From the NCBI GenBank assembly GCA_020723105.1, contig DYJL01000001.1, positions 198,273 through 262,272 of the forward strand: a stretch of DNA of 64,000 nt, written 5' to 3'. This document shows positions 1,195 to 19,013 of this stretch, in pieces; positions within the stretch are counted from its first letter, which is position 1, and the number at the start of each line of letters is the position of its first letter. The stretch comes from Nitrospira japonica. GTDB taxonomy: Bacteria > Nitrospirota > Thermodesulfovibrionia > UBA6902. The translations under genes were made by a program, and so were the position numbers. The notes below the pieces were generated by a model. It was given only the letters and a program-made list of their open reading frames with translations. It ran no database searches and was not told where the DNA came from.

Positions 1195-1794
1195 TCACGT
1201 GTCATTGCCCTTGGGGTTCATGGTATTTCTCTGTACCGTCTCAATGTCTCACGCCGTAACCGCAGTTTCATAAACAGTTGCAATGAGTTCGCGCCGGATG
1301 CACTTAGTGACTATCTATCATTTCAGGCAGCGGAACAGCACATGATGCGATCCGGTTATAGTAAAAACCATTTTGCCCACTGTGCCCTTTCCAAAGATAA
1401 AAATCTGTATTACACTCACGCCAGAAGAGGGGAGGACCTGCTTGCCTTTGGTGCTTCTGCCGACTGAGTTTTTGGTGACTTTCAATACCGTCATCCTTTA
1501 TATGGAAAGTATATAAAAGGAACTGAATCGGTTTACCCCGTGATAGAAGGCGCGGTCATGAAGACGTCGCTTGAGCGCCAGCTGCATCCCGCGGTTGTAT
1601 CTCTTATGTGTGGTACGATCATTAAAGGTTTATTAAAAGGAGTTCACACGGAAAATACATTCAATAAATGGGTCGATTCTAAATTGATCAGAATATCTGC
1701 AAATACCGATGATTATATCCTGACAGCAAACGGCTCATTGTTTGTAAACGATATGATAAATGATTTGAAGGGGAATATAGGAAGTTATGAATGA
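1195..1794 (+). pseudogene. Fragmented HemN/HemW-like radical-SAM C-terminal region (frameshifted, no N-terminal core)
   Basis: No long ORF covers 1195–1540, but one frame reads ALGVHGISLYRLN...HFAHCALSKDKNLYYTHARRGEDLLAFGASA. Then ORF 1540..1794 (different frame) looks like a HemN_C domain. The CxxxCxxC core is missing and local GC is higher than the surroundings. Confidence 0.35.
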
Positions 1795-2118
1795 CTTCGC
1801 CAAGTCTTTATTTGACAGCTTTTCTAATTTCACAAGATCGGCCGTAAGTTATTATCTGTGAATTTCATTATTTTCACTTTACTTATTTGTTTTGCATCGA
1901 GAGTCTAATTATATACCGTCCAATAATTAGACATTACCAGCCTCTTGCGTCTTTTTTCTCCTTATCGCATAACGTCATCTATATTTATAATTTGACTGAT
2001 TAATCAGCAGGTTATCGTCATTGTTTGATCAACCGTTTAGTGCTGGCATAACGGTTGCTTTATATCTATTCATTAATCAATCATTTGAAAAACAATCTAT
2101 TGAAAGGAGGATGGAGAG

Positions 2119-2520
2119 ATGAAGAAGAAAATGCCGGTAATGATCGGAGTAATTAGTGTATTCAATATTGTGGTTGGTGCGATATTAGCGCTGAGTTCTT
2201 TCGGCCTGCAATCTGGATCTGATATCGCATTACTTTTTGGAACAGGTCTTTTTTCTTTTGTAATTGGGATCGGATTAGTCAGCTTAAGATCCTGGGCAAG
2301 GAAGGCAGCTATAGCAGGCTACATACTAAATTGTGTCGTTGGATTAGCAGAGGGAAATATAATTGCTATAGCTGTTGCCTCGATTATCCTGACATATCTC
2401 CTGAGCGAAAAAGTGAGAAGGGTATATTCGATGGATAAGGAACAGCAAACAACAACCGAAAAACAAAAAGATGCAAACGTAATCTTAGAAGCACCGGTTA
2501 CAACTCAAAGCATAAATTAA
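2119..2520 (+). CDS. Small multi-pass membrane protein, unknown function
   Basis: Strong SD (AAGGAGG) 8 nt upstream. About 4 hydrophobic segments and a charged C-terminal tail. Confidence 0.5.
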   Translation: MKKKMPVMIGVISVFNIVVGAILALSSFGLQSGSDIALLFGTGLFSFVIGIGLVSLRSWARKAAIAGYILNCVVGLAEGNIIAIAVASIILTYLLSEKVRRVYSMDKEQQTTTEKQKDANVILEAPVTTQSIN

Positions 2521-2541
2521 AAAACAACAGGAGGAATCAAC

Positions 2542-2892
2542 ATGTTAGCAAATATCTTAATATGCACACTAGTTATGTGGGGTCTGTCAGCAATAGCCGT
2601 AACACCTTTAGCAAAAAGATGGTTTGAAAATGCGGTAGCTGCCAATCCGGCACTTGCAACAGCGGGTAATACAGGATCAATAAGTAATGACATGAATCCG
2701 GAGATGCAGAAGCTTTATAACATAATTTACATCAAAGCTGATGTGCTTGTGATGGGGGTTGCAGGATTTATTGCGGGACTGGCTGGTTTTCCGTTAATTG
2801 GATTTGCATGTAAGGCAAATGCATGGCCCGGCATGATAGCAATGATCGGATTGAGCTTTCTGAGTTTTCACCTGACCGGAGGTCCTCGTTAG
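2542..2892 (+). CDS. Small membrane protein, unknown function
   Basis: SD GGAGGA precedes the ATG. Hydrophobic segments. Tandem with the previous gene. Confidence 0.5.
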   Translation: MLANILICTLVMWGLSAIAVTPLAKRWFENAVAANPALATAGNTGSISNDMNPEMQKLYNIIYIKADVLVMGVAGFIAGLAGFPLIGFACKANAWPGMIAMIGLSFLSFHLTGGPR

Positions 2893-3180
2893 TTTATGAG
2901 TTCGATCAACCAATGTATTACGGCAGGGAGGGGAGTTTCCTATGGTTGGGAGACTCCTCCGGGCTCTACATTGCAATGTTTCGTACATTTATTCTGTATG
3001 GATATAGTTTTTGGAAGATTTAATTAACGACTCACGTGTTTCAGTAAAAAGTATTACTCAAAATAGTCGATCATGTAACTCAGAGGGCGGGAGCATGTCC
3101 AGTAATTTAAGCTCAAACTTAAATGGAGATTCAAAATAAATACACTAACATAATTTAACTTGAACCACTTTGTATATTAA

Positions 3181-3993
3181 GTGTATTATTCACATAGATC
3201 TATTTATAATCCGGGAGCCAAAATGAGCAATATAAAATTCTATAGATTCAGTTACTTACATGGAAAGAAACCCCTACTGCATCATCAGCGTGATGGTGAA
3301 AGCTTTATTGAACTTATGCCTCTTTTAATTGGAAAAGGTTTTGAGTACGGTGGTTTGATTCCGAATCTTGCACTGGAAGAAGGGAATAAATTTGAACCAT
3401 TGGACACCTCTTTTTTTAGAAAGGGGGATCTGATTGTGATGACAACGCGTCCACCCCTCGATGATAAAGAAGAAGGGCCTCATCTTGTTATTCGCAGGGG
3501 GGGTACAGCGCTGGAGAATAAAATATTTCATGCACTTAGAGAGTATCTTTCCGTTTGTTCAAGAAGGCAGGTATCACTGCATACATCTTTTATAGATAAA
3601 TTTTTGGCAGGCTACGATGATAGGTCGTCAATTACTTTTACAGGACACGGCAAAATAACTCGATATTTCAATGTAGCGAGATATCAGGCGACTGTGGATG
3701 CTAAAAAAAGAGTTAAACAATGGCGGCAGAAAGATGGTCGCCGGACTGCAGTTTATCTTATCTACATTGGCGAGGCATGGAAAGGTGGCCCTGATCTTAT
3801 GGTGAGTTTCGGGATGACAGGTGCGTGTAACCTTATCTGGGCATATCTGATTCGGACGAGGTTTCCGCAGTTTCTGAACAGTTATAGAATCGTTGCTGCT
3901 GAAATTTTAATTGGGGATATTCCGAGTCTGCCTGCTGATCTATCTTTTGTTGAAGGCTGGGACGTTAAGATCCTGCTTGATTATAAGCTGTAA
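3181..3993 (+). CDS. Hypothetical protein (likely start at internal Met, nt 3223)
   Basis: Long ORF with no motif I recognise. It is the first gene of the same-strand cluster that runs to 17.2 kb. Confidence 0.45.
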   Translation: MYYSHRSIYNPGAKMSNIKFYRFSYLHGKKPLLHHQRDGESFIELMPLLIGKGFEYGGLIPNLALEEGNKFEPLDTSFFRKGDLIVMTTRPPLDDKEEGPHLVIRRGGTALENKIFHALREYLSVCSRRQVSLHTSFIDKFLAGYDDRSSITFTGHGKITRYFNVARYQATVDAKKRVKQWRQKDGRRTAVYLIYIGEAWKGGPDLMVSFGMTGACNLIWAYLIRTRFPQFLNSYRIVAAEILIGDIPSLPADLSFVEGWDVKILLDYKL

Positions 3994-4264
3994 TTGTTTG
4001 GTTCTACCTTTCTGTATTATCTTTACAATATGCCGTCTCGTTCCTTTACATAGCTCAGATATGATCTACTGTGTTTAACACCTCATGTTAGTTTCATTTA
4101 TTGTTCATTTTAAAAAGAGACATTAATAATTTTCAGAAAAAAATAAATTATCTGAAAAAATCTTTTTTACTAAAAAAAACTTTCTCTCAATCTCCATTTC
4201 TGTTTTCACTTGGTACATAATTGTGCATCTAAACTTTCTTGCATTTTGATGGGTTGTCTCATTA

Positions 4265-5368
4265 ATGCCTCACATTGGAGGTGCAATGCAAACGAAAATG
4301 CTTTTTACAATCAATGAATTCACCGCACTGTCTTTGCGCTTAAACCTGATCTTGTCGGTCAAACCCATTGACTGGAAGGCTGTGCTATTGTGCATATTCA
4401 ACAAACAGTTAACGGCTGCTAATGAAGACAATCTGCTTGAGACATTATCTTACCTTAACGATGCATATGGAGAACAAAAACGCAAGGTTGGCACCCCTGC
4501 CATACTGCATCCTATTCGCTCGGCTGCAATCCTTGCCTGGGCGCATGATACGATCAACACATTGGATGTACTAACATCACTTCTGCATGACAAGGACGAG
4601 GATATACTGTCCAACAGCTACTCACCAGATAGGTGGACTAAACTTGAAGAAAGTTTCGGCAGGCTTGTTAATAAGATCGATAGTCGCGAGGAGAAATGGT
4701 TTCTCAATGAAAGAATCCATTTTTTAGCGAGAGAAAAAGAAGAAACATACAATGATTACCTTTCCCGTCTTTTCTGTCAGGCAAAAGAAACTCCTGAACT
4801 GATACGCGTAAAACTTGCTGACCGGTTGGACAACACACTTGACCTCCGATTGGATTTCTATGATCAAACTGAGGCCGTCAACTTCTATCATCTTATTTTC
4901 ACGATTCTTTTTGACGTTAAATACGCTGGTTTGAACATTCATGGGCAACATCCCTCTGCGCGTAAGATACGTGGTTCCAAGCGTCTTTATGAAATATTTA
5001 AAAACTACTGCCTGTTTTCTATCCTGTATTCAGGTGACATAGAGCTTGATGAGACTTCTCAGTGGCTGTTGCGTTCAATCGCAGATGCCAGTATCAGTGA
5101 GGCACAGAATGTTCTTCTTCATATCTTTGCCTATCATCTAAGAGAACCTGAAGATCAAAGAAGGGTGATCAGGAGTATCTTGGATTCTCACGGAGATGAA
5201 ATTATTGGAGATAACAGATTATTAGACAGATTAATAAAAAATACTTTTAACCTTGAAAACAAAAGTAACCGGAAGCAAAGCTTGGATGATCTATATGATG
5301 ATAAAGAGCGGATGGTAAAGACTGCCATAGCTTTCGTAGTGCTTTTTAACAACTACCTGTTTGAGTAA
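4265..5368 (+). CDS. HD-domain protein resembling the RelA/SpoT (p)ppGpp hydrolase domain (SAH/Mesh1-like)
   Basis: GTPAILHPIRSAAILA...LLHDKDED matches the Rel/SpoT hydrolase H..HD..ED block. RVKLADRLDNTLDL matches the conserved KLADRLHNMRTL helix. Confidence 0.6.
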   Translation: MPHIGGAMQTKMLFTINEFTALSLRLNLILSVKPIDWKAVLLCIFNKQLTAANEDNLLETLSYLNDAYGEQKRKVGTPAILHPIRSAAILAWAHDTINTLDVLTSLLHDKDEDILSNSYSPDRWTKLEESFGRLVNKIDSREEKWFLNERIHFLAREKEETYNDYLSRLFCQAKETPELIRVKLADRLDNTLDLRLDFYDQTEAVNFYHLIFTILFDVKYAGLNIHGQHPSARKIRGSKRLYEIFKNYCLFSILYSGDIELDETSQWLLRSIADASISEAQNVLLHIFAYHLREPEDQRRVIRSILDSHGDEIIGDNRLLDRLIKNTFNLENKSNRKQSLDDLYDDKERMVKTAIAFVVLFNNYLFE

Positions 5369-5553
5369 TGTAGTTGTTCACATTTGTTCACTGGCTTAAT
5401 TATTTTATTATGAGAAATATATTAGCCTCTTTCGTATATATAGACGGCCGCTCCTGTTTTTAATATTGTTTGGCGGTGATATTGCAAAATGCTTTTATGT
5501 AACTGAGAGTGCGGAGCATGCCCAAAACAAATAACCTAATAAAGGAGACAATC

Positions 5554-6498
5554 ATGAAACTCGAAAATGTCGGTAGTTTTGAGAGGGTGGAGATGGGGGG
5601 GAAGACTGTTTTAATCCCTAATCCTACAGATATCCCTGAGTATAAATTCATTGGCAGGGAGCGGATCATCGAAAAGGCGCTTGCGGCCTGGACGTGTATT
5701 AACGGGACAACTCCCCTGAACTTCAGACTCTACGGGCCTCCGGGGATCGGGAAGAATGCGCTTGTGTATGAGCTTGCGCGTATTCTCAATAAAGACCTTT
5801 ACATCATCAACGGACATGAAGAGCTTGGGCCTGAGGATGTTGCGTGTTCTGCAACCATGACATCGAAGAACACGATAGAGTATGTGGCGTCACCATTGTT
5901 TGCGGCAATGCTTAGGGGGGGGATTTTCTTCTTCGATGAGATAGGTAAGACCCCTCAGTCAGCTCTCGATCCGCTTGCCTCTGTGCTTGATGACCGGAGG
6001 AGTATGACATCGGTGCTTGCGGGGATACATCTGAAGGCGCATCCTGATTTCCTCTGCTGTGCGGCATTGAATGAAGATGAAGAAAACGGCGTAGGCCTGC
6101 CGGGCTTTATTGATGAACGAACACGGCCTGCCATCTATGTCGGATATCCGTATGTTTCAGAAGTTGAAGAGATCCTGATGAGCAGGATGAAGGAGGTGCC
6201 GGATATCTGGGTGAGGGCGCTGCTCTCGGATTTTAAACATGTCAATCTGTCCACACGTAACGCTATCACCCTTCTGGGATACGCATACAGGCTTGCAAAA
6301 AAGGGAAACGGTAAATCAGCGCCCCTAAGCGAGAAGGAAATAAAAGAATACATTGCCAATGCGTACAAGCACATAAAAGCGGGAGATGAAGACCAGAAGA
6401 AAGAACATAACGCGAACCTTAAAAAAGGCTTAGAAACTTACACAGGAGATTTATATGCTAACCAGATCGTTAGTCAGAGTAAGGAAACAGTACATTGA
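5554..6498 (+). CDS. MoxR-type AAA_5 ATPase
   Basis: Walker A LYGPPGIGKN and Walker B FFFDEIGK. The LGPEDV / QSALDPL...DDRRSMT pattern is typical of MoxR/CbbQ/NorQ ATPases. SD AAGGAG lies 6 nt before the ATG at 5554; the track ORF begins at 5509. Confidence 0.75.
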   Translation: MKLENVGSFERVEMGGKTVLIPNPTDIPEYKFIGRERIIEKALAAWTCINGTTPLNFRLYGPPGIGKNALVYELARILNKDLYIINGHEELGPEDVACSATMTSKNTIEYVASPLFAAMLRGGIFFFDEIGKTPQSALDPLASVLDDRRSMTSVLAGIHLKAHPDFLCCAALNEDEENGVGLPGFIDERTRPAIYVGYPYVSEVEEILMSRMKEVPDIWVRALLSDFKHVNLSTRNAITLLGYAYRLAKKGNGKSAPLSEKEIKEYIANAYKHIKAGDEDQKKEHNANLKKGLETYTGDLYANQIVSQSKETVH

Positions 6499-6665
6499 GA
6501 AAAGATTGAAAGTTCATAAGATTAAGAAAAGAGAACTCAGTAGACAGTAGTCAGAAGAAAGAAAGCAGGAAGTAGGCAGAAGAACGAAGTCCATTCTGAA
6601 TTCTGGATTCTTCTGTTTTAACTTTCGAACTTACGAGCTTATGATCTTTCACTCTTTATTGCTTT

Positions 6666-8762
6666 ATGAAAAAGAAACAGTACATCAAGCATAACAAGTT
6701 CGACAATTTGTATGTGATTCCTTACATACGGGGGAGGCTGGTGTTTGCAGAGATGGCGGCTCGTGCTATTGAAGAAGATAATTTTGAGCAGGTGGTGGCG
6801 GATTTACCGTTCTTCATGAATACGGGAGCACTCTGGGAAAAGGCTGTAAAGTTATTTCCTCAGGTAAGTTCACTGCTCATTAAGAGAAACGATGATACGT
6901 TTGCGGTCTTTCCCTTTGTCCCTAATGATGCTGCCTGCATGTCGCTTGCTGCTGTTAAGCTGCTGAAGGATTGGGGCAGGGATATTGAATTGCGGTGTAT
7001 AGATGATTCACATATCATTCACTATCCGCGCGAATCCCTTGTTCAGCCGGTTATCAGGATGCGGGATGATCAATTTGTTTTCACAGAGGGCCTCGATGAA
7101 TATTACAATGCCATGTATGCTCAGCTTGAGTCTTCACTGAGCGAAGTGACAGAGGACCAGCGCTTATTCAATGAATACAGGGCAATCCTTGTGAGTGAAC
7201 GGATCAAAGGATGTATGGCCGGAGGCAAAAAGACCCTTTTTGTATGTGAGTACAGGCTCTGGTGGCAAATACAGAAAACACTGAATGCGTCCCATCCAAA
7301 ACCCGTTCACTATTATGCCCAGAAATGGAAGGATGTACAGGCAGCACACGTCCTTAGTGATCCGATTGATCTCTGGAAGCGCGGGGCGATGGATGATTCA
7401 ACGACTATAGTGAAGCAGTTCTATGACAGATTTCAGTCCGCTTCTTTAAAGACATTTGACAAGCTTGATGAAATTGCCGCATTGATCAAAAATCACTTCA
7501 AGGTGGAGTCACAGAGAAGGCGGGGCTGTTCATCGATCAGAAAGACCATCTTATTTTACCAGTACCTGCAGAACCGGGTTGCAGCAGATCTACGCATTAC
7601 GCCTCTTGTTATCCGGCATCTTTATGACAGCGCCCATTCATGCATCGGGAGGCAGTATGCAAAAACGCTGGCTGTGAAATGTCTTGAGTATCCTTATTCA
7701 GGACAAGACAGTGTTCAGCGCTTTATTGTGATCGGGCAAAATTCAGTTACCATGGGTACAGAGGGTTTCGATATCCCCCATTCAGCGAAAAGACTTTTTC
7801 TCTATACAGGCACTGATCAGTATTCATATGATCATTTTCATGATGACCTGTCCTGGGCTGTAGACAGAAATACCATGCTCGACGATTTCTTCAATAACCT
7901 CAGCGACAGTGAAAAGAATGGTCTGTCAAATTACACCGGCTTCAAATGGGAGATCAGAAGGGACTTCAAGCTCATTGAGAGTGTATGCAGTGATGCTCGA
8001 GAGAGGATCATGCGGGAGCAGTATAAAGAAAAAAACATGAGGAGCTGGGGCTCAATGGGGGATGGGATAGAATGGAAGGCGACGATCGCGTCAAGGGCCA
8101 GCGGAGAGGATTCGGTATACATAAGAAAGAGAAGCATGAACAGAAATAACGGCAAAAAACTTAATGAGTTCACACCAGTGATATTTATATTTACGGATGA
8201 CATGAAAGGACATGTAGTGAAGCATCTGGAAGAAGGTAATGAGGCTTATCATTACTATGCTTCGGAAGAAAAGGATTTTATTGATTTCAGAAAGATGAAG
8301 GTTGATTGTGTCCATTATGCGCTTATGACCTATCCGGAAGAGAAAGTTGTCTATCCGAAGCATATCTTCAGGTGTGATCTGTCATCCCTTGCGCTCATGT
8401 ATACGAGAGGGTTGTTAAAGGAGCAGAGGTTCAAACAGCTCATAAAAAGACCTGAGAGATATTTGTGCCGTACATTTCCGCAGCTCGACACAGAGATCAA
8501 GAACTTTCCATTATCTGAGATCGGCGTTGCGTGGGGCTTGAAATACGCTGAAGAGTCTGTTCTGGTCATTGCGAAGGACGGATGGAGATCTTCAGAGGAG
8601 CTGGCAGAGTTTGCCGAAAATAAAAAAACGCGTATCATGCATCAGCCATTGTCGCGGTTCAGCCCTGACGTGATAGAGCGGCTCAGAAAATTATACCTAA
8701 TATCGACCGACCTGGAGTACCATCCCGGCCGCGACAGTATTGTGAAGAGGTTTGTGGATTAG
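6666..8762 (+). CDS. Uncharacterised 698-aa protein, paralog A of a tandem family
   Basis: Shares N-terminal (MKKKQYIK..NLYVIPYIRGRLVFAE), internal (KTLFVCEYRLW; FYQYL.NR; FTPV.FIFTDD) and C-terminal (GVAWGLKYAEE..IAKDGW) blocks with ORFs 8899..10995 and 14487..16586. Confidence 0.7.
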   Translation: MKKKQYIKHNKFDNLYVIPYIRGRLVFAEMAARAIEEDNFEQVVADLPFFMNTGALWEKAVKLFPQVSSLLIKRNDDTFAVFPFVPNDAACMSLAAVKLLKDWGRDIELRCIDDSHIIHYPRESLVQPVIRMRDDQFVFTEGLDEYYNAMYAQLESSLSEVTEDQRLFNEYRAILVSERIKGCMAGGKKTLFVCEYRLWWQIQKTLNASHPKPVHYYAQKWKDVQAAHVLSDPIDLWKRGAMDDSTTIVKQFYDRFQSASLKTFDKLDEIAALIKNHFKVESQRRRGCSSIRKTILFYQYLQNRVAADLRITPLVIRHLYDSAHSCIGRQYAKTLAVKCLEYPYSGQDSVQRFIVIGQNSVTMGTEGFDIPHSAKRLFLYTGTDQYSYDHFHDDLSWAVDRNTMLDDFFNNLSDSEKNGLSNYTGFKWEIRRDFKLIESVCSDARERIMREQYKEKNMRSWGSMGDGIEWKATIASRASGEDSVYIRKRSMNRNNGKKLNEFTPVIFIFTDDMKGHVVKHLEEGNEAYHYYASEEKDFIDFRKMKVDCVHYALMTYPEEKVVYPKHIFRCDLSSLALMYTRGLLKEQRFKQLIKRPERYLCRTFPQLDTEIKNFPLSEIGVAWGLKYAEESVLVIAKDGWRSSEELAEFAENKKTRIMHQPLSRFSPDVIERLRKLYLISTDLEYHPGRDSIVKRFVD

Positions 8763-8861
8763 GCAATTTATAAAGTTCGTAAGGTTGAGAAAAGGAGATA
8801 GTAGGAAGAAGGTAGTAGGCAGAAGGCAGAAGAAGGATGGCCATTCTGGATTCTTCTGATA

Positions 8862-8873
8862 AGCTTTCAAGCT
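8862..8873. promoter_or_regulatory. Perfect palindrome AGCTTTCAAGCT upstream of paralog B (candidate operator); adjacent half-site repeat GTCAAGCT..CCAGCTT
   Basis: Seen directly in the sequence. The same 12-mer recurs at 14441..14452 upstream of paralog C, and a degenerate version (CTTTCGAAC) lies upstream of paralog A. Confidence 0.4.
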
Positions 8874-8898
8874 GTCAAGCTGGCCAGCTTTAACTGTT

Positions 8899-10995
8899 AT
8901 GAAAAAGAAACAATACATCAGGCTGACTGGATTTGAGAACTTGTATGTGATCCCTTACGTTCGAGGCCGGCTGGTGTTTGCGGAGCTTGTGGCCCGTGCG
9001 ATAGAGGAGGATGGGTTTGAGCAGGTTATAGTTGACCTTCCATTTTTTCTGAATAAAGGAGGTGTATGGGAAGAGGCGGTGAAACAGTTTCCTCATGTAA
9101 GTTCACTATATTTCAGAATAGAAGACGGCCGCTTTGCAGCGATCCTCTTTACCCCATCTGATGCAGTATCCACTGCGCTCTCGTCTATTCAGATCCTCAG
9201 GGAATGGGGAAACAGCATTGACCTTCAGTGTATCGATGATTCACGGGTAATTCATTATCCCAAAGGGAGCCTGGCCTTTCCGGACGTCAATGTGGGCGAT
9301 GACTACTCTGTATTTATCCAGGGACTGGCTGAATATTTTAACTGCCTCTACGATCAGCTCGATGGTGAATGGAAAGAGGTCAGCAAAGATCAGAGGTTCT
9401 TCAATGAGTACCGGGCAGGTCTTATCAGCGACCGGCTCAGGGGTTATCTGAGGGGCGGGAAGAAGACTCTCTTTGTGTGTGAATACAGGCTGTGGTGGCT
9501 TGCAAGTAAGATGTTTATCAATGAGCGTCCTGTTCCGGAGCACTATTTTTCTCATCCCTGGAAAGACGTCAAGGCAGTCCTTGTGGTTGATTCCCCTCTC
9601 AAATTATGGGTGAAGGGGGCCCTTGATGATTACCCTGCTGTGGTTTATGAATTTTATAATAATTTAAGAAAGGGAATCACCGCGTCGTTTGATAAACTTG
9701 CAGCCGCAGAGACTATTCTCAACCGATCATTCCATCATGACCGTGATCACAATGTCGATGGAGCTTCTTTGCGCAGGGTCATCATTTTTTACCAATATCT
9801 CAGGAACAGGCTGCTCAGTGAATGCCGCCTGACGCCTCTGGTGCTCCGGCACCTCTACGATGCGGCATATTCCTGTCTTGGGAAAAAAATGGCAAACAGT
9901 ATCACAAAGAATCTGCTTTTCTATCCGCAGGGTAAACATAACAGGAAGAAAAACCTGAGCATCAGGGAGGACAGCAGTATAGAGAACGATCATCCGGATG
10001 ACATCAGGAAGCTTTCAAAAGGGTTGTCCTCTATGAGTGGTGAAAATAAATTGCCTATGGATACATTGTATGACGGATACCGTAAACCGGTAGAAGAACT
10101 GCAGATCATTAGCAGGCTTTACCCAAGGCTGGAGAGCAATATTTTAACATCTGAGGGGGAATGGATAGGTATAACCTGGTCGATCAAGGCGGATTATTAT
10201 CAATACGAGCTTGCCGCTATTAAACTGAGAAATGTGCTGGCAGGAAGAGATCAGCGGCGCAGGATAATAAAAAGCAGTGGTTCAATACGAAATGGCATCC
10301 ACTGGAAAGCTACTATAAACGCCCGCGCATTGAAAGAAGACACTTTGTATGTTAAGCACAAATACCGGCAGAAGAGACAGAAAAGAAATAAGCTTGACGA
10401 ATTTACTCCGGTCACCTTTATTTTTACCGACGATTTCAGGGTACACTGGTACAGGGAAATATACTCATCCAACAGATCGCGGAGATACCTCGACCTGAAC
10501 CCGTATACGTCCTTGCCGAATGGCTATCCACCTCCTGATCTGGTCATTAATGCTCTATACAGTCTTTATGATATGAAAGAACTGAGCGGGGGACATATTG
10601 TTAAACGGGCAGTCTCTTCCATTACACTCCTGTATAACAAGAGGGTTGTCGATGATGCCCGATATGATGCTATCAGCAGCAGGCGTGACCGGTTCCCTGT
10701 TCGCTGCGGTGCCATCACGGACACTGAACTCATATCCTTTTCCATACCTGAAAAGGGCATCGCCTGGGCAGTCAAATACGCAGAACATACAGTGGTAGTC
10801 GCAGCAAAACCCGGATGGAAACCGTCGCAAAGCCTTGCCGAATTCAGCAGGCAAAGAAATATCGAGATCGCCCACGTGCCCCTGTCGGTATTTCAGAAAG
10901 AATTTATAGGCCGACTGAAGACCATGTACTTCACCTCAACAGCAATAAAGAGACGGCCTGACAGGGATGAGATTGTGGGGAGGTTTATTGAGTGA
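8899..10995 (+). CDS. Uncharacterised 698-aa protein, paralog B
   Basis: Same conserved blocks as paralog A. Conserved upstream element including the palindrome AGCTTTCAAGCT. Confidence 0.7.
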   Translation: MKKKQYIRLTGFENLYVIPYVRGRLVFAELVARAIEEDGFEQVIVDLPFFLNKGGVWEEAVKQFPHVSSLYFRIEDGRFAAILFTPSDAVSTALSSIQILREWGNSIDLQCIDDSRVIHYPKGSLAFPDVNVGDDYSVFIQGLAEYFNCLYDQLDGEWKEVSKDQRFFNEYRAGLISDRLRGYLRGGKKTLFVCEYRLWWLASKMFINERPVPEHYFSHPWKDVKAVLVVDSPLKLWVKGALDDYPAVVYEFYNNLRKGITASFDKLAAAETILNRSFHHDRDHNVDGASLRRVIIFYQYLRNRLLSECRLTPLVLRHLYDAAYSCLGKKMANSITKNLLFYPQGKHNRKKNLSIREDSSIENDHPDDIRKLSKGLSSMSGENKLPMDTLYDGYRKPVEELQIISRLYPRLESNILTSEGEWIGITWSIKADYYQYELAAIKLRNVLAGRDQRRRIIKSSGSIRNGIHWKATINARALKEDTLYVKHKYRQKRQKRNKLDEFTPVTFIFTDDFRVHWYREIYSSNRSRRYLDLNPYTSLPNGYPPPDLVINALYSLYDMKELSGGHIVKRAVSSITLLYNKRVVDDARYDAISSRRDRFPVRCGAITDTELISFSIPEKGIAWAVKYAEHTVVVAAKPGWKPSQSLAEFSRQRNIEIAHVPLSVFQKEFIGRLKTMYFTSTAIKRRPDRDEIVGRFIE

Positions 10996-11346
10996 GGGTT
11001 GTGGTAAGGAGAAAACATTTTATCAAATTTGTTTTGATCATTATCGCTATTATTTTATTTAACATACTCCTTTGCTATGTGACGAGATTGCCGCGCTCCA
11101 AAAATTATATACCTCCGCACAGAATGTTCAGGTTTAGTCCTATTTGTGAACAGAAGGATGCAGAGTCAAGGAAAACATTGGAAGAAGCAACCGGGGATTT
11201 AAAATCGGGAAAATAGGAAATAGGGATGGAAGACCAGGAAACACCAGACAGGAAACATAATGATGAAGAAGGGTAACCCCAAAGTGTTATGAGCAGCAGA
11301 TATTTGTACTATTACTTTCATCGATATTGCATTGTAAATGTAAAGA

Positions 11347-13839
11347 GTGAAATCAGACATGTCATTTGATCTTTACTATAAAAAGAATACAAAAGAGCTT
11401 ATAGTTCTTTACAAAGATACGGAAAGGGATGTGGTTTGCTTTATCTCTATTGAAAGGCATCCAACAGCAAAACAGAGGATCGTTGGGGTTGATGACTGGA
11501 AGCAGGTCCTGCCGGAGTTCAGGCCATTCAGCTTTAATAGGGCTTATTCCTGTTTCAGAGATCGAACAATATCTGACAGTTCTGATGAATATGAATACAC
11601 ATATCATAAGAGCGTACTTGACCGCTTTTTTCACGATTCATTAGATCAGACAGAGGTATCACTTCTTGACCGGTACAACATCAACCTGTTTCTAATCCTT
11701 CTCTATATCAGGAAAGCGACGATCAATACTTTGATAGAGAACAATCCTGCGTTAGCGCTTATGCTGATCCATGATTCATGCAATTCATCCCTGCCGTTCG
11801 AATCAGATGAGCTGTGGGCGAACATCAGGGAGACGGCTCAATTAATGCCATCGCAGATCGTAAAGAATCTCTATAACATTAAGACAAGCAGAAAGGCTTC
11901 AGAGATTTTTCAGAAGGTCGATACAAAAGAACTGCCATGTATTGAGCCTCTCCTGCAGCTGATAGAAAGTCTAAGGGATTGCTGGGTCATGGGGATACTT
12001 GAGAATCTCAACAGGATATCTTATGAGGTATTGCTCATAATCATTGAGCGAAAGAACAGGTCTGTGATAAGCGCGGGATTCCTGACCTCTGTGAATGCGT
12101 CATCGGGAAGTCCTGTTTCAGCATCTCATATGCTTCAGTGGCTGCATGAGAACCATGTCACGATCCATTTCCCACTAACAAATATGCGCCACCTGCGCAC
12201 TATATACGAGCATATAGTGAAGGAGGAAGACCTCCCTGACGTCGTGGATGAATTTAATTCCGGGCCTTTGATCACATGTCAATCAGATCCAGGGCCACAG
12301 AATGATAGTGTCAAAGAACGAGATCCCATTCTAGAAGTTCCCCATAGAATGGAGAAGGCATCAGATATATTGCTCGCAATGCAGCATGATATACTGGGGC
12401 TTGGAAAAAAGACATACCAAAAGCTCCTGGATCTTGAGAAGGATATACCGGTCATTGATAGACCGGCTGCTGTGCTTAAGGCTGTATCCGTCACAAAGGA
12501 ATTCTTTCTTCTTAAGGAAAGAAAGATAACGCACCTGCTCGAAACATATGATCAATCAAAGGCATTCAACAGCATCGGCAATTCCGAACTTATCAATGAA
12601 CAGTTTCCGGAGCTCGAAAGACTGATCGATCCCGAATTTCTTAGTGAGTATGTGGCATCTGCTGACAGTGATAACTATAGCAGGCGGCTGCGTGGACACG
12701 CCAGAGCATTGAACCGCCACAGGCTGCTTCATGAAATTATTATGGATGAGATCAGAGCTGTAATTAAATGCAGCCAGGCCAAATCCATGACGATCAAGGA
12801 ACTGAAGAGGGTGATAGCTGCAACAGCGCTTCATGATTATAGAAATAAAGATGTACTGCAGGCATTGAAACTCGCAATGGAAATGAATAATCCCATTCTC
12901 AGGGGAAACGCCGTTGCGGAGCTTTTGTTTACTCGCATACCAGCATATATAAGATCACATTTTACGGATGATCCGAAGGTCATTGTCTCCCTGAGGCAGC
13001 GCCTGCTTTCAAAAATATCAAAGGTCAAGGGGCCTCCAAATTTAAAAATAGCGCTGTTCCATCTGGCGCCCAGATCAAACACCCGGAAGAAGGATGATTT
13101 CATCGCAATGATGAACCGGCTACTCTCATTCATCGAGAAAACTGAGATCGTTGATGAAGAATCAAAGATCTCGGTCCGGAGTTTTATTCAGAATGTGACA
13201 GGAGAGATCAGACGTCTAGATTCTATTTACAAAAAACTGTTCCTGACTGAAAAGGAACTTCAGGACGTTTATGGACTGTACAGGCCGAACAACAGACTGG
13301 TCACATGCAATATGCAGCATATAGAGAGGATCATATATGAACACTGCGATATACAGAAACTGTATATGTATCCATGCAAGGATTATCTGGATCTCGAAAA
13401 ATACCGCTGGTCTCATGATTGCAGCAAGGACACGTTGGGAGTAAACCAGCTCAGGACCCCTCAGTTCTTTAATGTCAGGTTATTCAAAAATGACAAGGAA
13501 TATTGCGGGAACATATATATGCTCCAGATGGAATGCGATTCGAGGATTTATCTCCTTGTCGATCGTATCCAGACAGCAAGTTTTGACACGAGGTATGTGA
13601 TGTTCTACGACACCCTGAAGGACGCCTTCCAAAAGATGTTCCGCGACCTTTCCTTTAATGAGATATTACTGCCGGACATAAATGTTTCTAACAATGCATC
13701 ACTTAATAAATTGTTCCATGACTCAAAAAAGAAATATATCAAAAAGAAGGTCAGCTTTGATCTGCATGACGATATGAGACGTAATTTTGAGTGCCTTAGA
13801 AGCGATTCGTTTCATGTTTTATACTCAAAAACGAGTTAG
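11347..13839 (+). CDS. Hypothetical 830-aa protein
   Basis: Long ORF between paralogs B and C. No recognisable motifs. Confidence 0.55.
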   Translation: MKSDMSFDLYYKKNTKELIVLYKDTERDVVCFISIERHPTAKQRIVGVDDWKQVLPEFRPFSFNRAYSCFRDRTISDSSDEYEYTYHKSVLDRFFHDSLDQTEVSLLDRYNINLFLILLYIRKATINTLIENNPALALMLIHDSCNSSLPFESDELWANIRETAQLMPSQIVKNLYNIKTSRKASEIFQKVDTKELPCIEPLLQLIESLRDCWVMGILENLNRISYEVLLIIIERKNRSVISAGFLTSVNASSGSPVSASHMLQWLHENHVTIHFPLTNMRHLRTIYEHIVKEEDLPDVVDEFNSGPLITCQSDPGPQNDSVKERDPILEVPHRMEKASDILLAMQHDILGLGKKTYQKLLDLEKDIPVIDRPAAVLKAVSVTKEFFLLKERKITHLLETYDQSKAFNSIGNSELINEQFPELERLIDPEFLSEYVASADSDNYSRRLRGHARALNRHRLLHEIIMDEIRAVIKCSQAKSMTIKELKRVIAATALHDYRNKDVLQALKLAMEMNNPILRGNAVAELLFTRIPAYIRSHFTDDPKVIVSLRQRLLSKISKVKGPPNLKIALFHLAPRSNTRKKDDFIAMMNRLLSFIEKTEIVDEESKISVRSFIQNVTGEIRRLDSIYKKLFLTEKELQDVYGLYRPNNRLVTCNMQHIERIIYEHCDIQKLYMYPCKDYLDLEKYRWSHDCSKDTLGVNQLRTPQFFNVRLFKNDKEYCGNIYMLQMECDSRIYLLVDRIQTASFDTRYVMFYDTLKDAFQKMFRDLSFNEILLPDINVSNNASLNKLFHDSKKKYIKKKVSFDLHDDMRRNFECLRSDSFHVLYSKTS

Positions 13840-14010
13840 AAAGAAAGAATAAAAACAGAATACAGTAGTCAGAATAAATACAGTTCGTAAGGCTGGCAAG
13901 TTAAAAGCTATTAAAATAGAGGCGTTAGAGCGCATTGCTTTATTCTTAACTTTAAGAACATTATAAACTTTATAAACCTTGTAAATTATATTTTTTCCAA
14001 GTGATGGCAA

Positions 14011-14340
14011 ATGAATAAAAGGAAAGTGCTTTTTGTGTGTACACAGAATTTGATGCGAAGTCCGACTGCGGAGGAAGTATTCAGGGATTATCCGGAGATT
14101 GAAACGAGGTCTGCGGGCATTGGATTTACTTCAGAAACATATTTGGAAGAGTACCTGCTGAAGTGGGCTGACATTGTTTTTGTCATGGAAAAGAAGCATA
14201 AGGATCTAATCGTAAAGAAATTCGGGCAAACAGCACGTTATACACGGATCATATGTCTTGGGATCCCTGATGTATACAATTATATGGATGATGACTTGAT
14301 AGAAGTTCTAAAGATCAGGGTGACGCCATTTTTAAAATGA
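14011..14340 (+). CDS. Low-molecular-weight phosphotyrosine phosphatase / ArsC-family protein (short form)
   Basis: N-terminal VLFVCTQNLMRSPTAE fits the CX5R(S/T) P-loop of the LMW-PTP family. Confidence 0.6.
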   Translation: MNKRKVLFVCTQNLMRSPTAEEVFRDYPEIETRSAGIGFTSETYLEEYLLKWADIVFVMEKKHKDLIVKKFGQTARYTRIICLGIPDVYNYMDDDLIEVLKIRVTPFLK

Positions 14341-14440
14341 TATCCATCAAGGTTGAAGGTTGGAAAGATAAGTAGACAGTATGCAGTGGACAGAAGGCAG
14401 AAAAAAGAAGAAAGCCCTCGATTCTGTATTATTTCTGTTC

Positions 14441-14452
14441 AGCTTTCAAGCT
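14441..14452. promoter_or_regulatory. Palindrome AGCTTTCAAGCT upstream of paralog C
   Basis: Identical 12-mer to 8862..8873. Followed by TTTTCAGCTTTCTATCTGGCCAGCTT, which parallels the paralog B leader. Confidence 0.4.
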
Positions 14453-14486
14453 TTTCAGCTTTCTATCTGGCCAGCTTCTTACTATT

Positions 14487-16586
14487 ATGAATAATAAACA
14501 ATACATCAAACTGACAGGATTCGACAATTTGTACGTGATCCCCTACATACGTGGCAGGCTGGTGTTTGCGGAGCTGGCGGCGAGGGCGCTTGAAGAGGAT
14601 CAGTTTGAACGTGTGGTGGTGGATTTCCCGTTCTTTATGAACAATGACAACCTTCTTGAAAAAGCCTCACAAATGCTGCCTTATGCAAGCTCACTGCTAC
14701 TGAAGAAAAAAGATGGCACTTTTGTTTCCATCCCGTTTGTGCCGAATGACGCGGCCTGCATCACTGTAGCAGCTGTGCAGTCGTTAAAGAAAGACGGGAT
14801 ATCCATTGAGCTTAAATGCATTGATGACTCTCAGGTCTTCAATTATCCGCAGGAGAGTTTAATGCAGTCCGAAATAAATTTCACTGATGACTATTTCGTG
14901 TTTACAGATGGCCTGGAGAATTTCTTTGGGCCTCTGTACATGCAGCTTGATCAGTCCTTGAGAGAGTGCTCCAGGGACCAGCGTTTCTTTAGTGAATACA
15001 GGGCCGGTATTATCGCCGAACGTCTGGCAGGGCTCCTCCGACAGGGGAGTAAGACGCTTTTCGTGTGCGAGTACCGGCTCTGGTCTTTAGTCTCAAGCAT
15101 GCTTGAGGTGGGATCAGTTAGAAGAGGGAACGGTTTTCATCTTTTATGGAAGGACCTCAAGGGCGCGATGGTCTATGAAGATCCCTATTATTTCTGGGCG
15201 CATGGTCTGCTGGATGATTATCCGTTCGCGGTGGAACAGTTCTATAACAAGTTCAGGCTCGGCAGTGTCCGCATGTTCGACAAACTCAAATGCATTGAGG
15301 AGCTTGTTAAGAATTCAATCCACAGGTGCGCTGGAAAGGAGAAGGACAGTTTATCGATACGCAGGCTTATTTCTTTTTATGGGTATCTTGGCACGATGGT
15401 CACAGGTGCCCGTCGCTTTACGCCCCAGCCGCTTATACACCTTTATGACTCGGCGAATTCATGTCTCGGAAAGAGATTTGCGAAGTATATTGCAAAACAG
15501 TTCATGAAATACCCTATCCCTGACAGACAAAGGATCCAGGGCTTTTTAAATATTAAAGAAGGACAGATCGTTACATTACATAAGAAGTTCAATATCCCTG
15601 ACCTGTCGGAGTACCGTTATTTCAATACCGGGGGTACAGAATATTCATTCGACACACTGCAGGATGGCGATCACTCACCTGAAGATCTGAAGAATTTTAT
15701 CTTTAAGCTCGATCCATCGTTAGACAATAAGACCATCAAATCACTTGGTAATAACTCTTTTATGAACTGGGCTGTTCAGTCGGACTATTATATGCATGAG
15801 ACAGCGTGTGGAAAGTTGCGTGACATAATAAACAGAGAGCGCCTTCACGAAACTGCTAAAAAGAGTATGGGCCCGATGGGAAAGGGGATCCACTGGAAAA
15901 GGACGATCAGTTCAAAAGCGCTGGGCGAGGACAACATCTATATCAGATTGAAAAGCAACGTAAAAAAAGCCCTGAAGAACAGGATAGATGAATATACCCC
16001 GATAACATTTATTTTTACAGATGATTTTTGTAATCATGGAAGCAGTACAATCCATGATTCCAATATTACCAACAGGAACATTGAACTTGGTAATTCTGCG
16101 TTCTCAGATAAAAGTGATCCACCCCCGGATCATGTTTACTCAGTTTTCCATACGTTCAGTGGTGGAACTATATATTATGACGGGCACGTGGAAAGAAGAC
16201 AGATTTCCTCAATAACATTTTTATATACCCGTCATACCATGGGTTTACAGAGATATGCCGCTATCATGAAGAGGCCTGAAAGATTTCAGTGCCGGATCTC
16301 TCCCGGGTCTGATCAAGAGGTCCGTAATTTCCCCCTGCCGGAAACCGGTATCGCATGGGCTGTTAAATATGCTGAACATACAGTTATTATCGCAGCTGTC
16401 AACAGCTGGAAGCCGTCAGATACGCTGAGAGAATTTGCGAGGTCAAAAGGGGTAAAGATCCATACGATTCCTCTTTCGAGCTTTCAGCAGGATTTTATAG
16501 AACGTCTGAGAAGCCTTTATTTCACATCGACGCAGGTGAAGACGCATCCTGACGTGGACAGAATAGTGGAGAGGTGTATTGAATAA
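14487..16586 (+). CDS. Uncharacterised 699-aa protein, paralog C
   Basis: Conserved blocks as in paralogs A and B. Conserved 5' leader. Confidence 0.7.
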   Translation: MNNKQYIKLTGFDNLYVIPYIRGRLVFAELAARALEEDQFERVVVDFPFFMNNDNLLEKASQMLPYASSLLLKKKDGTFVSIPFVPNDAACITVAAVQSLKKDGISIELKCIDDSQVFNYPQESLMQSEINFTDDYFVFTDGLENFFGPLYMQLDQSLRECSRDQRFFSEYRAGIIAERLAGLLRQGSKTLFVCEYRLWSLVSSMLEVGSVRRGNGFHLLWKDLKGAMVYEDPYYFWAHGLLDDYPFAVEQFYNKFRLGSVRMFDKLKCIEELVKNSIHRCAGKEKDSLSIRRLISFYGYLGTMVTGARRFTPQPLIHLYDSANSCLGKRFAKYIAKQFMKYPIPDRQRIQGFLNIKEGQIVTLHKKFNIPDLSEYRYFNTGGTEYSFDTLQDGDHSPEDLKNFIFKLDPSLDNKTIKSLGNNSFMNWAVQSDYYMHETACGKLRDIINRERLHETAKKSMGPMGKGIHWKRTISSKALGEDNIYIRLKSNVKKALKNRIDEYTPITFIFTDDFCNHGSSTIHDSNITNRNIELGNSAFSDKSDPPPDHVYSVFHTFSGGTIYYDGHVERRQISSITFLYTRHTMGLQRYAAIMKRPERFQCRISPGSDQEVRNFPLPETGIAWAVKYAEHTVIIAAVNSWKPSDTLREFARSKGVKIHTIPLSSFQQDFIERLRSLYFTSTQVKTHPDVDRIVERCIE

Positions 16587-17167
16587 TGATCATTCAACTT
16601 AAAGAATATAAAACATTTTTGATAACTGCTGCAATTGCTATAATCTTTACGTTCGCTCTGATATATTTTGTTTTACTGCCCGAGCTTTCTCATAAGCCAC
16701 AGACGATTATCAAATATAAAATTATTCAAACAAATGAAGATGAGTGCATTTCAACACCATGCGGTAAAAGCGTTAATAGTCCGGGCATGATAATTTTGGG
16801 GGTCTCAAATGATAAGACCTATGGGTATACACAGGAGAATCCAATTAAGGTAGGAGGATATTCAGAAAAAGACGGCCCTGATAATGAGAGACGATACCTT
16901 AATTCCATCTATGGACCAAATGGAGAAATTATCGGATATACGAGGGAAGGCAGCTGCTGTTCTTTCAGAACATTGAACGGTATGGAAGGATTCGGTCTCC
17001 TTGATAGATTCAAAATCTCTTATGAAGGACTGAAAGAGCCGGTCATCCTTTATCTGAACATGTATGACCATGAGCTCCCCAAAGTGCCGTTCGGGTTTAC
17101 TGTAAAAACTGAGATCAAAGTTATTCAGAAAAACCTTATCTTTAATTTTGTGGATAGGGGAAAATGA
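16586..17167 (+). CDS. Membrane-anchored hypothetical protein (N-terminal TM, Cys-containing ecto-domain)
   Basis: Start ATG overlaps the paralog C stop (TAATGA), indicating translational coupling. One N-terminal hydrophobic helix. Confidence 0.5.
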   Translation: MIIQLKEYKTFLITAAIAIIFTFALIYFVLLPELSHKPQTIIKYKIIQTNEDECISTPCGKSVNSPGMIILGVSNDKTYGYTQENPIKVGGYSEKDGPDNERRYLNSIYGPNGEIIGYTREGSCCSFRTLNGMEGFGLLDRFKISYEGLKEPVILYLNMYDHELPKVPFGFTVKTEIKVIQKNLIFNFVDRGK

Positions 17168-17567
17168 GAGACTGATAAGATTAGAAGGTCCATAAAGTTA
17201 GAAAGTTGGAATATTATTACAATTTAGTTGATTGAAAAACCTAATGAACTGTTTAACTTTATAAACATGTCCACCCAAGATATTGTATAGAATACTCCAA
17301 TCTTCATCTAATTCTAGTGACATGTGGTAATTTGTGGACTTTAGTGGACATAGTGTTTGCAGAAGCGATTCCGTCAAAACAATGGCACGAAGATCTTTGT
17401 AAGATTTATAAAAATAAAAAATATGGAGTCAGTAGTAAGGAGTCAGGATGAAAGAATAAAGGAAACTATTCTGAATTCTGACTCCTTAATTCACTTTTTC
17501 TTAATGTCTTCTTTTGAAGGCCTTCTGGAGTCTGTTTACCCGGATTAGCATAAGGGCATAGAATATT

Positions 17568-17816
17568 ATGAAAGATTTAAATATGAGGAAGGACTTTAGC
17601 AGATTTGTGGGATCGCGGATAAGGTCCTTCAGGGAACAGGCGGGTTTGACCCAGATGCAGCTTGCGTTCATGTCGGACCTGGACCGGTCTTTCATACAGA
17701 AGGTTGAGCACGGCAGGCAGTCGATATCATTTGAGAATATGTGTGAGATAGCGAAATGTTTGAAGCGTCCGTTGTCTGATTTTGTACCATTAGTAAAAGA
17801 GGAAGCCGAAGGATGA
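17568..17816 (+). CDS. XRE-family helix-turn-helix transcriptional regulator
   Basis: GLTQMQLAFMSDLDRSFIQKVEHGRQSISFENMCEIAKCL is a Cro/C1-type HTH. Confidence 0.7.
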   Translation: MKDLNMRKDFSRFVGSRIRSFREQAGLTQMQLAFMSDLDRSFIQKVEHGRQSISFENMCEIAKCLKRPLSDFVPLVKEEAEG

Positions 17817-17849
17817 CAAAGTAGTCAGGACGATTGGAAAAGAACGATA

Positions 17850-19013
17850 ATGAATTTAAAGGTAAACATACACCAAAAACTTCTATATCGGGTATATGGG
17901 AATTCACTTGCAGTTATTATGAACGCAAAAGAAAACAGCGTGACCTTATTGCAGAATGAGCCTCTTGAATTATGGAAACAGATCCTAAGTAGAAATAACA
18001 TTGATAAAAGTTATTATCCCAAACTCAAACAGTTAGCTGATCTGGGACTTGTTGAAATAGAAGGGGCGATTAAAAACCAGCACAGTTCTGGAGTAAATGA
18101 TCGATCTGTTCAGGAAGTGGATCTGGGGGCTGTTAACTACTGGGCCTTTAAAAATCTTATTCCCCTGAGTGGGCATTTTGAATTGACGAGTAGATGTAAT
18201 TTAAGATGCCGGCATTGCTACTGTATCTATACGGATAAAGATTCTTTAGATACCAATAAAATTATCACGATATTGGATGATCTCCATGAGAGCGGGACCT
18301 TCGGATTGGTTTTGACCGGGGGAGAAATATTTGGCAGAGAGGATATCCTTGATATTTTAAAATATCTGAATGAAAAGAAATTTGTATTGAGATTGAATAC
18401 GAACGGGGTGTTGATCGATGAGAAGATCGTGAAAGAGATGGAAGGACTTTCAAATATTTATAGAATACATGTAAGCCTTTATAGCTCTAAGCCTGAAGTT
18501 CATGACATGATCACAAGGATGGAGGGCTCTTTTCAGAAGACATTAAATGCCATACGACTTTTAAAAGAAGCAGGATTTGGCATTCGTATCAACTGCTCTC
18601 TTATGCAATCCAATGCAGACTCCTATAAAGAGATAAAGACTGAAATAGGAGACAAGCTTAATATTCCCGTGCATTATGATCCGTTCATTTTTCCAAAAGA
18701 TAATGGAAAGATCGAAAACATGTATGAAATGTTTGACGATGATCAGATCAAGGATTATGAAACGTTTAACAAGAAAGAGCCGTCCGGGAAAAAGCCAAAG
18801 CTTTGTAAAGCGGCTTTCTCATTTTTTTCAATCTGTGAAGATGGAAGTATTTATCCCTGCCTGAAGATGAAAAAATATTATGACAAGCCTCTCGCTAATT
18901 TACAGGAATCCTCTTTCAAAGAGATCTGGTATAACTCGGCAGAGATAAAAAAGGTGAGGAATGTACTCAATGATAAACTGAGAGATTGCAATGTATGCGA
19001 TTTAAGCATATAA
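17850..19013 (+). CDS. Radical SAM / SPASM-domain peptide-modifying enzyme with an N-terminal PqqD-like RRE
   Basis: CNLRCRHCY (CxxxCxxC) at about residue 115. The N-terminal 100 aa (LYRVYGNSLAVIMNAKENSVTLLQNEPLELWKQIL) look like a RiPP recognition element. A C-terminal Cys cluster (CKAAF..CEDGSIYPC...CNVC) is consistent with SPASM. Confidence 0.65.
   Translation: MNLKVNIHQKLLYRVYGNSLAVIMNAKENSVTLLQNEPLELWKQILSRNNIDKSYYPKLKQLADLGLVEIEGAIKNQHSSGVNDRSVQEVDLGAVNYWAFKNLIPLSGHFELTSRCNLRCRHCYCIYTDKDSLDTNKIITILDDLHESGTFGLVLTGGEIFGREDILDILKYLNEKKFVLRLNTNGVLIDEKIVKEMEGLSNIYRIHVSLYSSKPEVHDMITRMEGSFQKTLNAIRLLKEAGFGIRINCSLMQSNADSYKEIKTEIGDKLNIPVHYDPFIFPKDNGKIENMYEMFDDDQIKDYETFNKKEPSGKKPKLCKAAFSFFSICEDGSIYPCLKMKKYYDKPLANLQESSFKEIWYNSAEIKKVRNVLNDKLRDCNVCDLSI

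Follow-up and report, generated by a model that had tools for sequence, protein, structure and literature searches.

A MoxR-class AAA_5 ATPase and its TIKI-fold, DUF5682-related partners in a probably mosaic gene cluster of Nitrospira japonica

Gene content of the cluster

A 14-kb run of nine genes lies on the + strand of a 64,000-nucleotide stretch of Nitrospira japonica DNA (GenBank assembly GCA_020723105.1, contig DYJL01000001.1, positions 198,273–262,272), hereafter termed the window, whose positions are counted from its first nucleotide. At the core of this run, a gene for a MoxR-class AAA_5 ATPase precedes genes for ~700-amino acid (aa) partner proteins that have a TIKI-type fold, are remotely related to DUF5682 as judged by profile comparison, and are likely non-catalytic; the cluster as a whole is probably a mosaic of three independent modules. 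MoxR ATPases are widespread, and their logic is understood almost only through partners bearing a VWA domain. A preliminary description of the window had listed nine co-directional genes, and the list of open reading frames gives all nine with the same coordinates, as follows.

3181–3993, + strand: 270-aa protein, first gene of a separate pair with the HD gene
4265–5368, + strand: 367-aa HD protein, with an N-terminal Rel/SpoT-type (small alarmone hydrolase-like) domain and a C-terminal part of ~170 aa
5509–6498, + strand: 329-aa MoxR-class AAA_5 ATPase, conserved first gene of the core module
6499–6665, + strand: leader 5′ of paralog A, one of three related leaders of ~130 nucleotides (nt)
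6666–8762, + strand: paralog A, 698 aa, with an N-terminal TIKI/TraB-fold domain, a helical middle and a C-terminal alpha/beta domain
8763–8898, + strand: leader 5′ of paralog B, similar to the other two paralog leaders
8899–10995, + strand: paralog B, 698 aa, 40% identical to A and 44% to C
11347–13839, + strand: 830-aa near-orphan protein, first gene of an independent inserted pair
14011–14340, + strand: 109-aa truncated protein resembling low-molecular-weight (LMW) protein tyrosine phosphatases and arginine phosphatases, partner of the 830-aa gene
14341–14486, + strand: leader 5′ of paralog C, similar to the other two paralog leaders
14487–16586, + strand: paralog C, 699 aa, 42% identical to A and 44% to B
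16586–17167, + strand: 193-aa protein with a single hydrophobic helix at its N-terminus, an optional third member of the core module

In the public gene call, the 270-aa gene starts at the ATG at 3223 and encodes 256 aa. The short gaps that had been described hold in part: the stop codon of paralog C overlaps the start codon of the 193-aa gene (TAATG), in agreement with the translational coupling claimed for this pair, but the remaining gaps of 136–351 nt are not very short. Scans for promoters and terminators give the same counts as in shuffled sequence. The 193-aa protein has no family match in Pfam, PADLOC, NCBIfam or PHROGs. None of the known defence systems in PADLOC-DB 2.0 is represented in the cluster; the only matches there are weak ones of the ATPase to DolB (E 0.011) and IetA (E 0.043), and the cluster proteins have no useful match in PHROGs.

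The MoxR-type ATPase and its conserved pairing

Assignment of the ATPase to the MoxR AAA_5 class, as originally proposed, is borne out by an AAA_5 score of 63.3 bits (cutoff 22); bpMoxR is a weak, sub-threshold match only. Its closest relatives of solved structure are midasin, NorQ and CbbQ. The Walker A motif is GPPGIGKN and the Walker B motif FFFDE. The form GPPGxGKN, in which Asn follows the Lys at the position where Ser or Thr is usual, is found in all eight clade ATPases (window and homologs from L001–L008). The clade ATPases end in a conserved K-E-T-x-H tail (K-E-T-V-H in the window) behind a charged low-complexity linker, and this tail is a candidate docking peptide. A VWA match, the hallmark of a classical partner, is found in none of the nine proteins.

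Pairing of the ATPase with a large downstream partner is strictly conserved. Eleven pairs with upstream sequence were compared, from the window and nine other non-redundant loci (10 in total), and the clade AAA_5 gene lies directly 5′ of the partner gene in all 11, from Nitrospirota to Desulfobacterales. A conserved, unannotated MoxR pair of this kind had been anticipated, and it carries no name in PADLOC, Pfam, NCBIfam or PHROGs. In one locus (L004, 9064–16280), two AAA_5–partner pairs stand in tandem; the second encodes a 299-aa ATPase and a 776-aa partner of a distant subfamily (E 2.9e-75), followed by a TPR protein of ~310 aa. The same order, AAA_5 (291 aa), 756-aa protein and TPR protein (312 aa), occurs in another metagenome (P0180), where it lies 3′ of a gene for a 270-aa homolog. 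In L008/L009, the gene directly 3′ of the partner gene encodes a homolog of 57% identity to the 193-aa protein. In L032, a 270-aa homolog is followed by an AAA_5 gene and that of a 693-aa protein, but a hidden Markov model (HMM) does not place this protein in the family, and it was set aside.

Family and fold of the partners

The pairwise BLASTP alignments of paralogs A, B and C, with the identities given above, extend over the entire proteins, so that the three tandem paralogs of the preliminary description are true paralogs, and they occupy the position expected for a large MoxR partner, encoded directly downstream of the ATPase. They match no model in Pfam, NCBIfam, PADLOC or PHROGs. The family is rare: 33 clusters were found among 5.8 billion proteins, and a survey of 185,579 species genomes gave 11 loci, in Nitrospirota, Thermodesulfobacteriota, Desulfobacterales and Acidobacteriota metagenome-assembled genomes (MAGs). 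In a neighbor-joining tree, each window paralog groups with orthologs of other samples: P0002 with paralog A (53% identity), P0010 with paralog B (69%), and P0006 and P0015 with paralog C (73% and 70%). As these orthologs are closer to the window paralogs than the paralogs are to their neighbors, the triplication must be old and maintained.

Over their N-terminal ~320 aa, the partners adopt the fold shared by TIKI, TraB, ChaN and erythromycin-esterase proteins, including the parallel beta-sheet of the TIKI core; Foldseek finds nothing significant in the PDB. The suggestion that the paralogs are degenerate VWA partners with a metal-ion-dependent adhesion site (MIDAS) is rejected: the VWA fold and the DxSxS...T...D MIDAS pattern are lacking, and the fold is TIKI-like instead. 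The C-terminal half was also examined for a second, duplicated TIKI domain, and gave no signal.

A more distant relationship connects the partners to DUF5682 and to E. coli YehM, a strong DUF5682 member encoded directly 3′ of the AAA_5 ATPase YehL in yehLMPQ. A search with the family profile over 1.84 billion representatives (E ≤ 1e-3) gives 538 relatives; nearly all full-length proteins among the 150 listed have 600–800 aa. Sixty-one distant full-length members of the superfamily were taken as a distant set, of which 11 match TraB_PrgY_gumN and 4 match DUF5682 in Pfam, with a best DUF5682 score (26.0 bits) equal to the gathering cutoff. The window family aligns with the distant set over its full length (probability 100%, E 4e-87). 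Against an HMM built from the distant set, YehM reaches 26.1 bits (profile positions 17–307) and the best of 500 shuffled YehM sequences 5.9 bits; hhalign of the same 61 members with YehM gives a probability of 95% (E 3.7e-8) over 294 collinear columns. Compared directly, without the distant set, the window family and YehM show no significant similarity (probability 0.6%), and therefore the DUF5682 link is transitive, via the broader 61-member profile. On these profile comparisons, the N-terminal ~320 aa mark the partners as remote relatives of DUF5682 (YehM family).

Loss of the TIKI catalytic residues

The catalytic 2His/2Glu set of TIKI-type enzymes was mapped on profile alignments, not by structural superposition, in 32 sequences of the window family and the 61 distant sequences, with the following result.

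Motif 1: GTAH in TraB, GIRHH in YehM, PSIHG in a distant member, PYIRG in the window family; the His position is Arg in 24, Lys in 4, Asn in 2 and His in 1 of 32, and His in 25/61 of the distant set
Motif 2: VaVEL, with LIEGP in YehM and VDLP in the window family; Asp in 32/32, and Glu in 36/61 of the distant set
Motif 3: GagH, with VVCGGWH in YehM, FVCGAVHW in a distant member and FVCEYRLWW in the window family; the His position is Leu in 30, Met in 1 and Ile in 1 of 32, and His in 38/61 of the distant set

The 2His/2Glu set is thus not kept in the window clade, and both His are lost in at least 30 of 32 sequences. In RRSP, replacement of any one of these four residues by Leu eliminates activity; PMT does not have the set and is likewise inactive (PMC6254334). 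As both catalytic His are gone, the partners are most likely non-catalytic adaptors or sensors, not peptidases. Loss of catalytic His followed by stable paralog lineages is a pattern typical of adaptors and sensors.

Independent pairs beside the core

The HD protein carries the Rel/SpoT hydrolase motifs that had been reported for it, H82, H108-D109, E112-D113 and K183-LADRLDN190, all aligned. It matches TIGR00691 (local E 2e-10) and the Rel hydrolase domains of 7ohg and 6s2t in the PDB (E 6e-7); in Pfam, the HD_4 score of 16.5 bits is below the 27.2 cutoff. A predicted structure of the 270-aa protein (predicted local distance difference test score 85.9) has its best match in the flavodoxin-like domain of BcsB. 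A toxin–antitoxin pair of toxSAS type with a small alarmone hydrolase antitoxin was considered for the two genes and rejected, as no RelA/SpoT synthetase fold is among the structural matches of the 270-aa protein.

The HD ortholog follows the 270-aa gene in L005 (70% identity) and in L030/31 (63%), and in L030/31 the pair (57% and 63% identity) occurs without a MoxR pair. HD relatives at 38–47% identity have none of the other cluster genes nearby, and an initial scan of metagenomes with only the HD protein as query gave no match. In L030/31, a ThiF gene and an LMW-phosphatase homolog (54% identity, ~6 kb away) are also located near the pair. In L024/L025 (10001–20822), a 270-aa homolog of 35% identity heads a cluster of Prok-RING_1, ThiF, JAB, AAA and Pup_ligase genes, a ubiquitin-like conjugation set.

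The 830-aa protein has two homologs only among 5.8 billion proteins. Both (L021, L022) adjoin HTH_3 and ThsB_TIR/toxin–antitoxin genes, with no AAA_5 or partner gene, and in L022 the 825-aa homolog is directly followed by a small phosphatase of 74% identity. Two tandem LMW-phosphatase-like genes are present after the 830-aa homolog in L022, and all three copies of the 830-aa gene have surroundings rich in toxin–antitoxin and ThsB_TIR genes, after or near a small HTH_3 gene. The 109-aa protein is LMW-phosphatase-like as described: LMWPc scores 36.2 bits (cutoff 23.2), and the C-X5-R-S P-loop reads CTQNLMRS, but its 109 aa compare with ~150 aa for the full LMW fold. Its best relatives of solved structure are YwlE arginine/tyrosine phosphatases, the alignment consisting of two short stretches.

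Paralog leaders and wider surroundings

The three paralog leaders share 72–75% identity and a common layout, in which a AAGTTCGTAAGGTTG arm is followed by successive purine heptamers (CAGTAGN/CAGAAGG), then by CCATTCTGNATTCT and finally by a CTTTCAAGCT arm. Fragments of the same motifs are present, far above shuffle expectation, in further intergenic regions of the + strand, as far as 21 kb and in one case at 54.4 kb (13856–13883, 17195–17211, 17430–17487, 17819–17831, 19265–19289, 20902–20977 and 54382–54408). Such sequences may be promoters or sites for a regulator, or else an intergenic repeat specific to this genome. A structured RNA was considered and rejected, since RNAalifold gives a hairpin but the fold energy is within that of shuffles (z −0.3 to −1.0); Rfam has no match in window positions 1–20000.

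Upstream of the cluster, a PP2C phosphatase is encoded at 319–1050; it shares 37% identity with a PP2C from the kinase/FHA/VWA cluster that adjoins a family member in L006/L007/L012, and 30% with one encoded 3′ of the module in L008/L009. Just 5′ of the 270-aa gene, on the same strand, lie genes for two small multi-pass membrane proteins of 133 and 116 aa (2119–2892) without family match. Genes for radical SAM/SPASM-like, FtsW/RodA-like, FtsB-like, M50 peptidase and GH18 proteins follow the cluster on the same strand (17850–23073). GH18 (L008, 13467–14453) or M50 (L017, 7060–7992) genes also occur near family members, and an M50 gene (L021, 13250–13978) near an 830-aa homolog; this recurrence could be coincidence. 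Further downstream (25082–30073), genes standing in a row encode a Gp3-like recombination directionality factor, which also matches GemA weakly and below threshold, a DnaG-type primase (zinc ribbon and Toprim) and a ribonucleotide reductase with a TSCPD domain. The GC content rises to 0.45–0.51 nearby, and this region may be a mobile-element or prophage remnant.

A probable mosaic of three modules and its alternatives

The part of the Nitrospirota-type genome in which the cluster lies would be variable and resemble a conflict island. With moderate confidence, it can be read as a mosaic of three independent modules. Module 1 would comprise the 270-aa protein and the putative Rel/SpoT-type HD hydrolase. 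Module 2, the core, would comprise the MoxR-class AAA_5 ATPase followed by its ~700-aa partners, three anciently diverged paralogs of which the last is coupled to the small membrane-anchored protein. Module 3, the 830-aa orphan and the truncated LMW-phosphatase-like protein, appears to be inserted between partners B and C. The HD, 270-aa, 830-aa and phosphatase genes are neighbors of the core, not demonstrated components of it.

MoxR ATPases carry out ATP-driven remodeling of a partner-bound client (PMC7159879). By analogy, a ring or hexamer of the AAA_5 protein might remodel or load the downstream TIKI-fold partner in an ATP-driven manner. The TIKI-fold partner would replace the VWA adaptor of classical MoxR systems, and the partners would serve as non-catalytic binding adaptors or sensors. 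That three diverged lineages share one ATPase is suggestive of a hetero-oligomer or of three specificities. For the coupled 193-aa membrane protein, a role in anchoring or in relaying the output may be envisaged.

The neighboring genes point to a possible role in conflict or stress signaling. In four/six independent loci, they encode TIR_2, NACHT/DUF4062-WD40, Ser/Thr kinases with TPR and PP2C/FHA proteins, as well as ClpB-like ATPases, SLATT, a RelA_SpoT-RyR protein, RHS and toxin–antitoxin pairs. A bolder proposal is that AAA_5–TIKI pairs represent a VWA-independent MoxR class, in which dead peptidase-fold proteins are interchangeable sensors or adaptors, three specificities are served by one ATPase, and output passes via the small membrane protein or via kinase, TIR or NACHT effectors. 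This proposal is tentative and rather improbable as it stands; if true, it would define a new threat- or stress-sensing module and give a first functional handle on DUF5682/YehLM.

Several observations weigh against the mosaic with a non-catalytic, DUF5682-related core. The window paralogs have no match to the Pfam model of DUF5682 (PF18934) at E ≤ 0.1, and the DUF5682 link depends on an intermediate profile and covers the N-terminal ~320 aa only. The conflict or defence context is guilt by association from about four/six independent loci, and the family is absent from plasmid, phage and IMG/VR searches. Residues R24, D46, D88, D113, D134, D243, D244 and K266 are invariant across the 32 window-family sequences and could belong to a different active site. 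Two Acidobacteriota members of 25% identity have no AAA_5 gene and lie directly 3′ of PafA/Dop-type Pup-ligase homologs, and 270-aa homologs stand upstream of other AAA_5 modules in two loci. The last three of these observations each lend weight to one of the alternatives considered below.

The invariant Asp, Arg and Lys residues would be explained if the partners were active TIKI-fold hydrolases with a rebuilt site, for which the MoxR protein would be an activase or cofactor-insertion factor, as CbbQ is for Rubisco and NorQ for nitric-oxide reductase. NorQ and CbbQ are indeed among the nearest solved ATPases, and ~40–60% of the wider family (25–38 of 61) keeps the canonical His/Glu residues; that branch is plausibly catalytic, and the window clade descends from enzymes. 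Each canonical residue is essential in RRSP, however, and PMT without the set is inactive (PMC6254334), whereas both His are gone in nearly the whole window clade; besides, no substrate gene is conserved beside the pair. An enzymatic role is hence unlikely, although it is the best of the alternatives.

The Pup-ligase-linked loci (L017, 8064–11905; L018, 5174–11905; L020, 1386–2057) belong to two Acidobacteriota MAGs with two Pup-ligase copies each. One open frame of L020 matches both the Pup-ligase and the family profiles, and may be a fusion or an unbroken junction. From these loci, the family might be assigned to protein tagging or turnover of a pupylation- or ubiquitin-like kind rather than to conflict, with the MoxR ATPase as a lineage-specific replacement of another unfoldase. 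The 270-aa homolog in the Prok-RING/ThiF/JAB/AAA/Pup-ligase cluster and the ThiF gene near the 270-aa–HD pair of L030/31 would fit such a role. This evidence comes only from the most distant members and from a different gene family, and Pup-ligase or proteasome genes occur in none of the 10 AAA_5-linked loci within the stretches read; involvement in tagging is very doubtful.

The preliminary description proposed a single signaling or defence system of nine genes, in which a MoxR chaperone and degenerate VWA/MIDAS paralogs would cooperate with two enzymes, a hydrolase of (p)ppGpp type and a Tyr-phosphatase. Co-directionality of the genes, the 270-aa family upstream of AAA_5 modules in two further loci and the 54%-identical phosphatase homolog ~6 kb from the 270-aa–HD pair in L030/31 are consistent with such a system, as is L005, a Nitrospirota MAG and the closest relative, which alone repeats the order 270-aa gene, HD gene, AAA_5 gene, C-type paralog and A-type paralog. 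As protein identities to L005 are 70–79%, the shared order can be inherited synteny. The neighborhood comparison that had been proposed shows conservation of the AAA_5–paralog pair, with the HD gene joining it only in L005. The 270-aa–HD and 830-aa–phosphatase pairs occur elsewhere without AAA_5 or paralog genes, HD relatives stand alone, and the VWA part of the proposal is largely refuted; one nine-gene system is therefore very unlikely, and module 1 may be loosely associated with MoxR modules. Co-directional gene runs in variable regions should accordingly not be annotated as single systems.

Comparison with known systems

The HD protein of module 1 resembles small alarmone hydrolases such as Mesh1 and the antitoxins of toxSAS pairs in its H, HD, ED and KLADRL.N motifs and in its alignment to Rel hydrolase domains, but differs from them in its sub-cutoff HD_4 score and its extra C-terminal region of ~170 aa.

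Within the TIKI superfamily, which includes TIKI, TraB/PrgY/GumN, ChaN, erythromycin-esterase, RRSP and HopBA1 proteins, the window clade is without the 2His/2Glu set and in this respect is like the inactive C1/C2 domain of PMT. Unlike the other members, the window proteins are much larger, with two further domains, and are coupled to an AAA+ ATPase.

The core shares with the MoxR–vWA pairs and ternary conflict systems (RavA–ViaA, CbbQ–CbbO and NorQ–NorD; Kaur et al., 2020, PMC7159879) the combination of a MoxR-class AAA_5 ATPase and a large partner, as well as neighborhoods rich in Ser/Thr kinase/PP2C/FHA, TIR, NACHT and ClpB-like genes, but has no vWA protein. The words TraB, Tiki, YehM, erythromycin and SWIM are all absent from the text of that paper, and a full-text literature search found no paper naming MoxR together with TraB, TIKI or GumN; a MoxR–TIKI pairing is not described in the searched literature. 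If interaction and a phenotype were established, the partners would represent a second kind of MoxR co-factor, and a family lacking entries in Pfam, NCBIfam and defence databases would gain a function.

The closest parallel is YehL–YehM, which has the same gene order, an AAA_5 gene followed by that of a 700–760-aa partner whose N-terminal ~320 aa are homologous by profile. The ATPases share ~26% identity over 126 aa. yehLMPQ also includes the VWA protein YehP and the SWIM protein YehQ, neither of which is present in the window module, and YehM keeps the His in motifs 1 (GIRHH) and 3 (CGGWH), where the window clade has Arg and Leu. The core is thus a new, unnamed MoxR and DUF5682-like variant, free of VWA and SWIM partners and of the TIKI catalytic His. 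As a strictly conserved MoxR pairing with a partner of a different fold, it and the long-unexplained yehLM of E. coli can inform each other.

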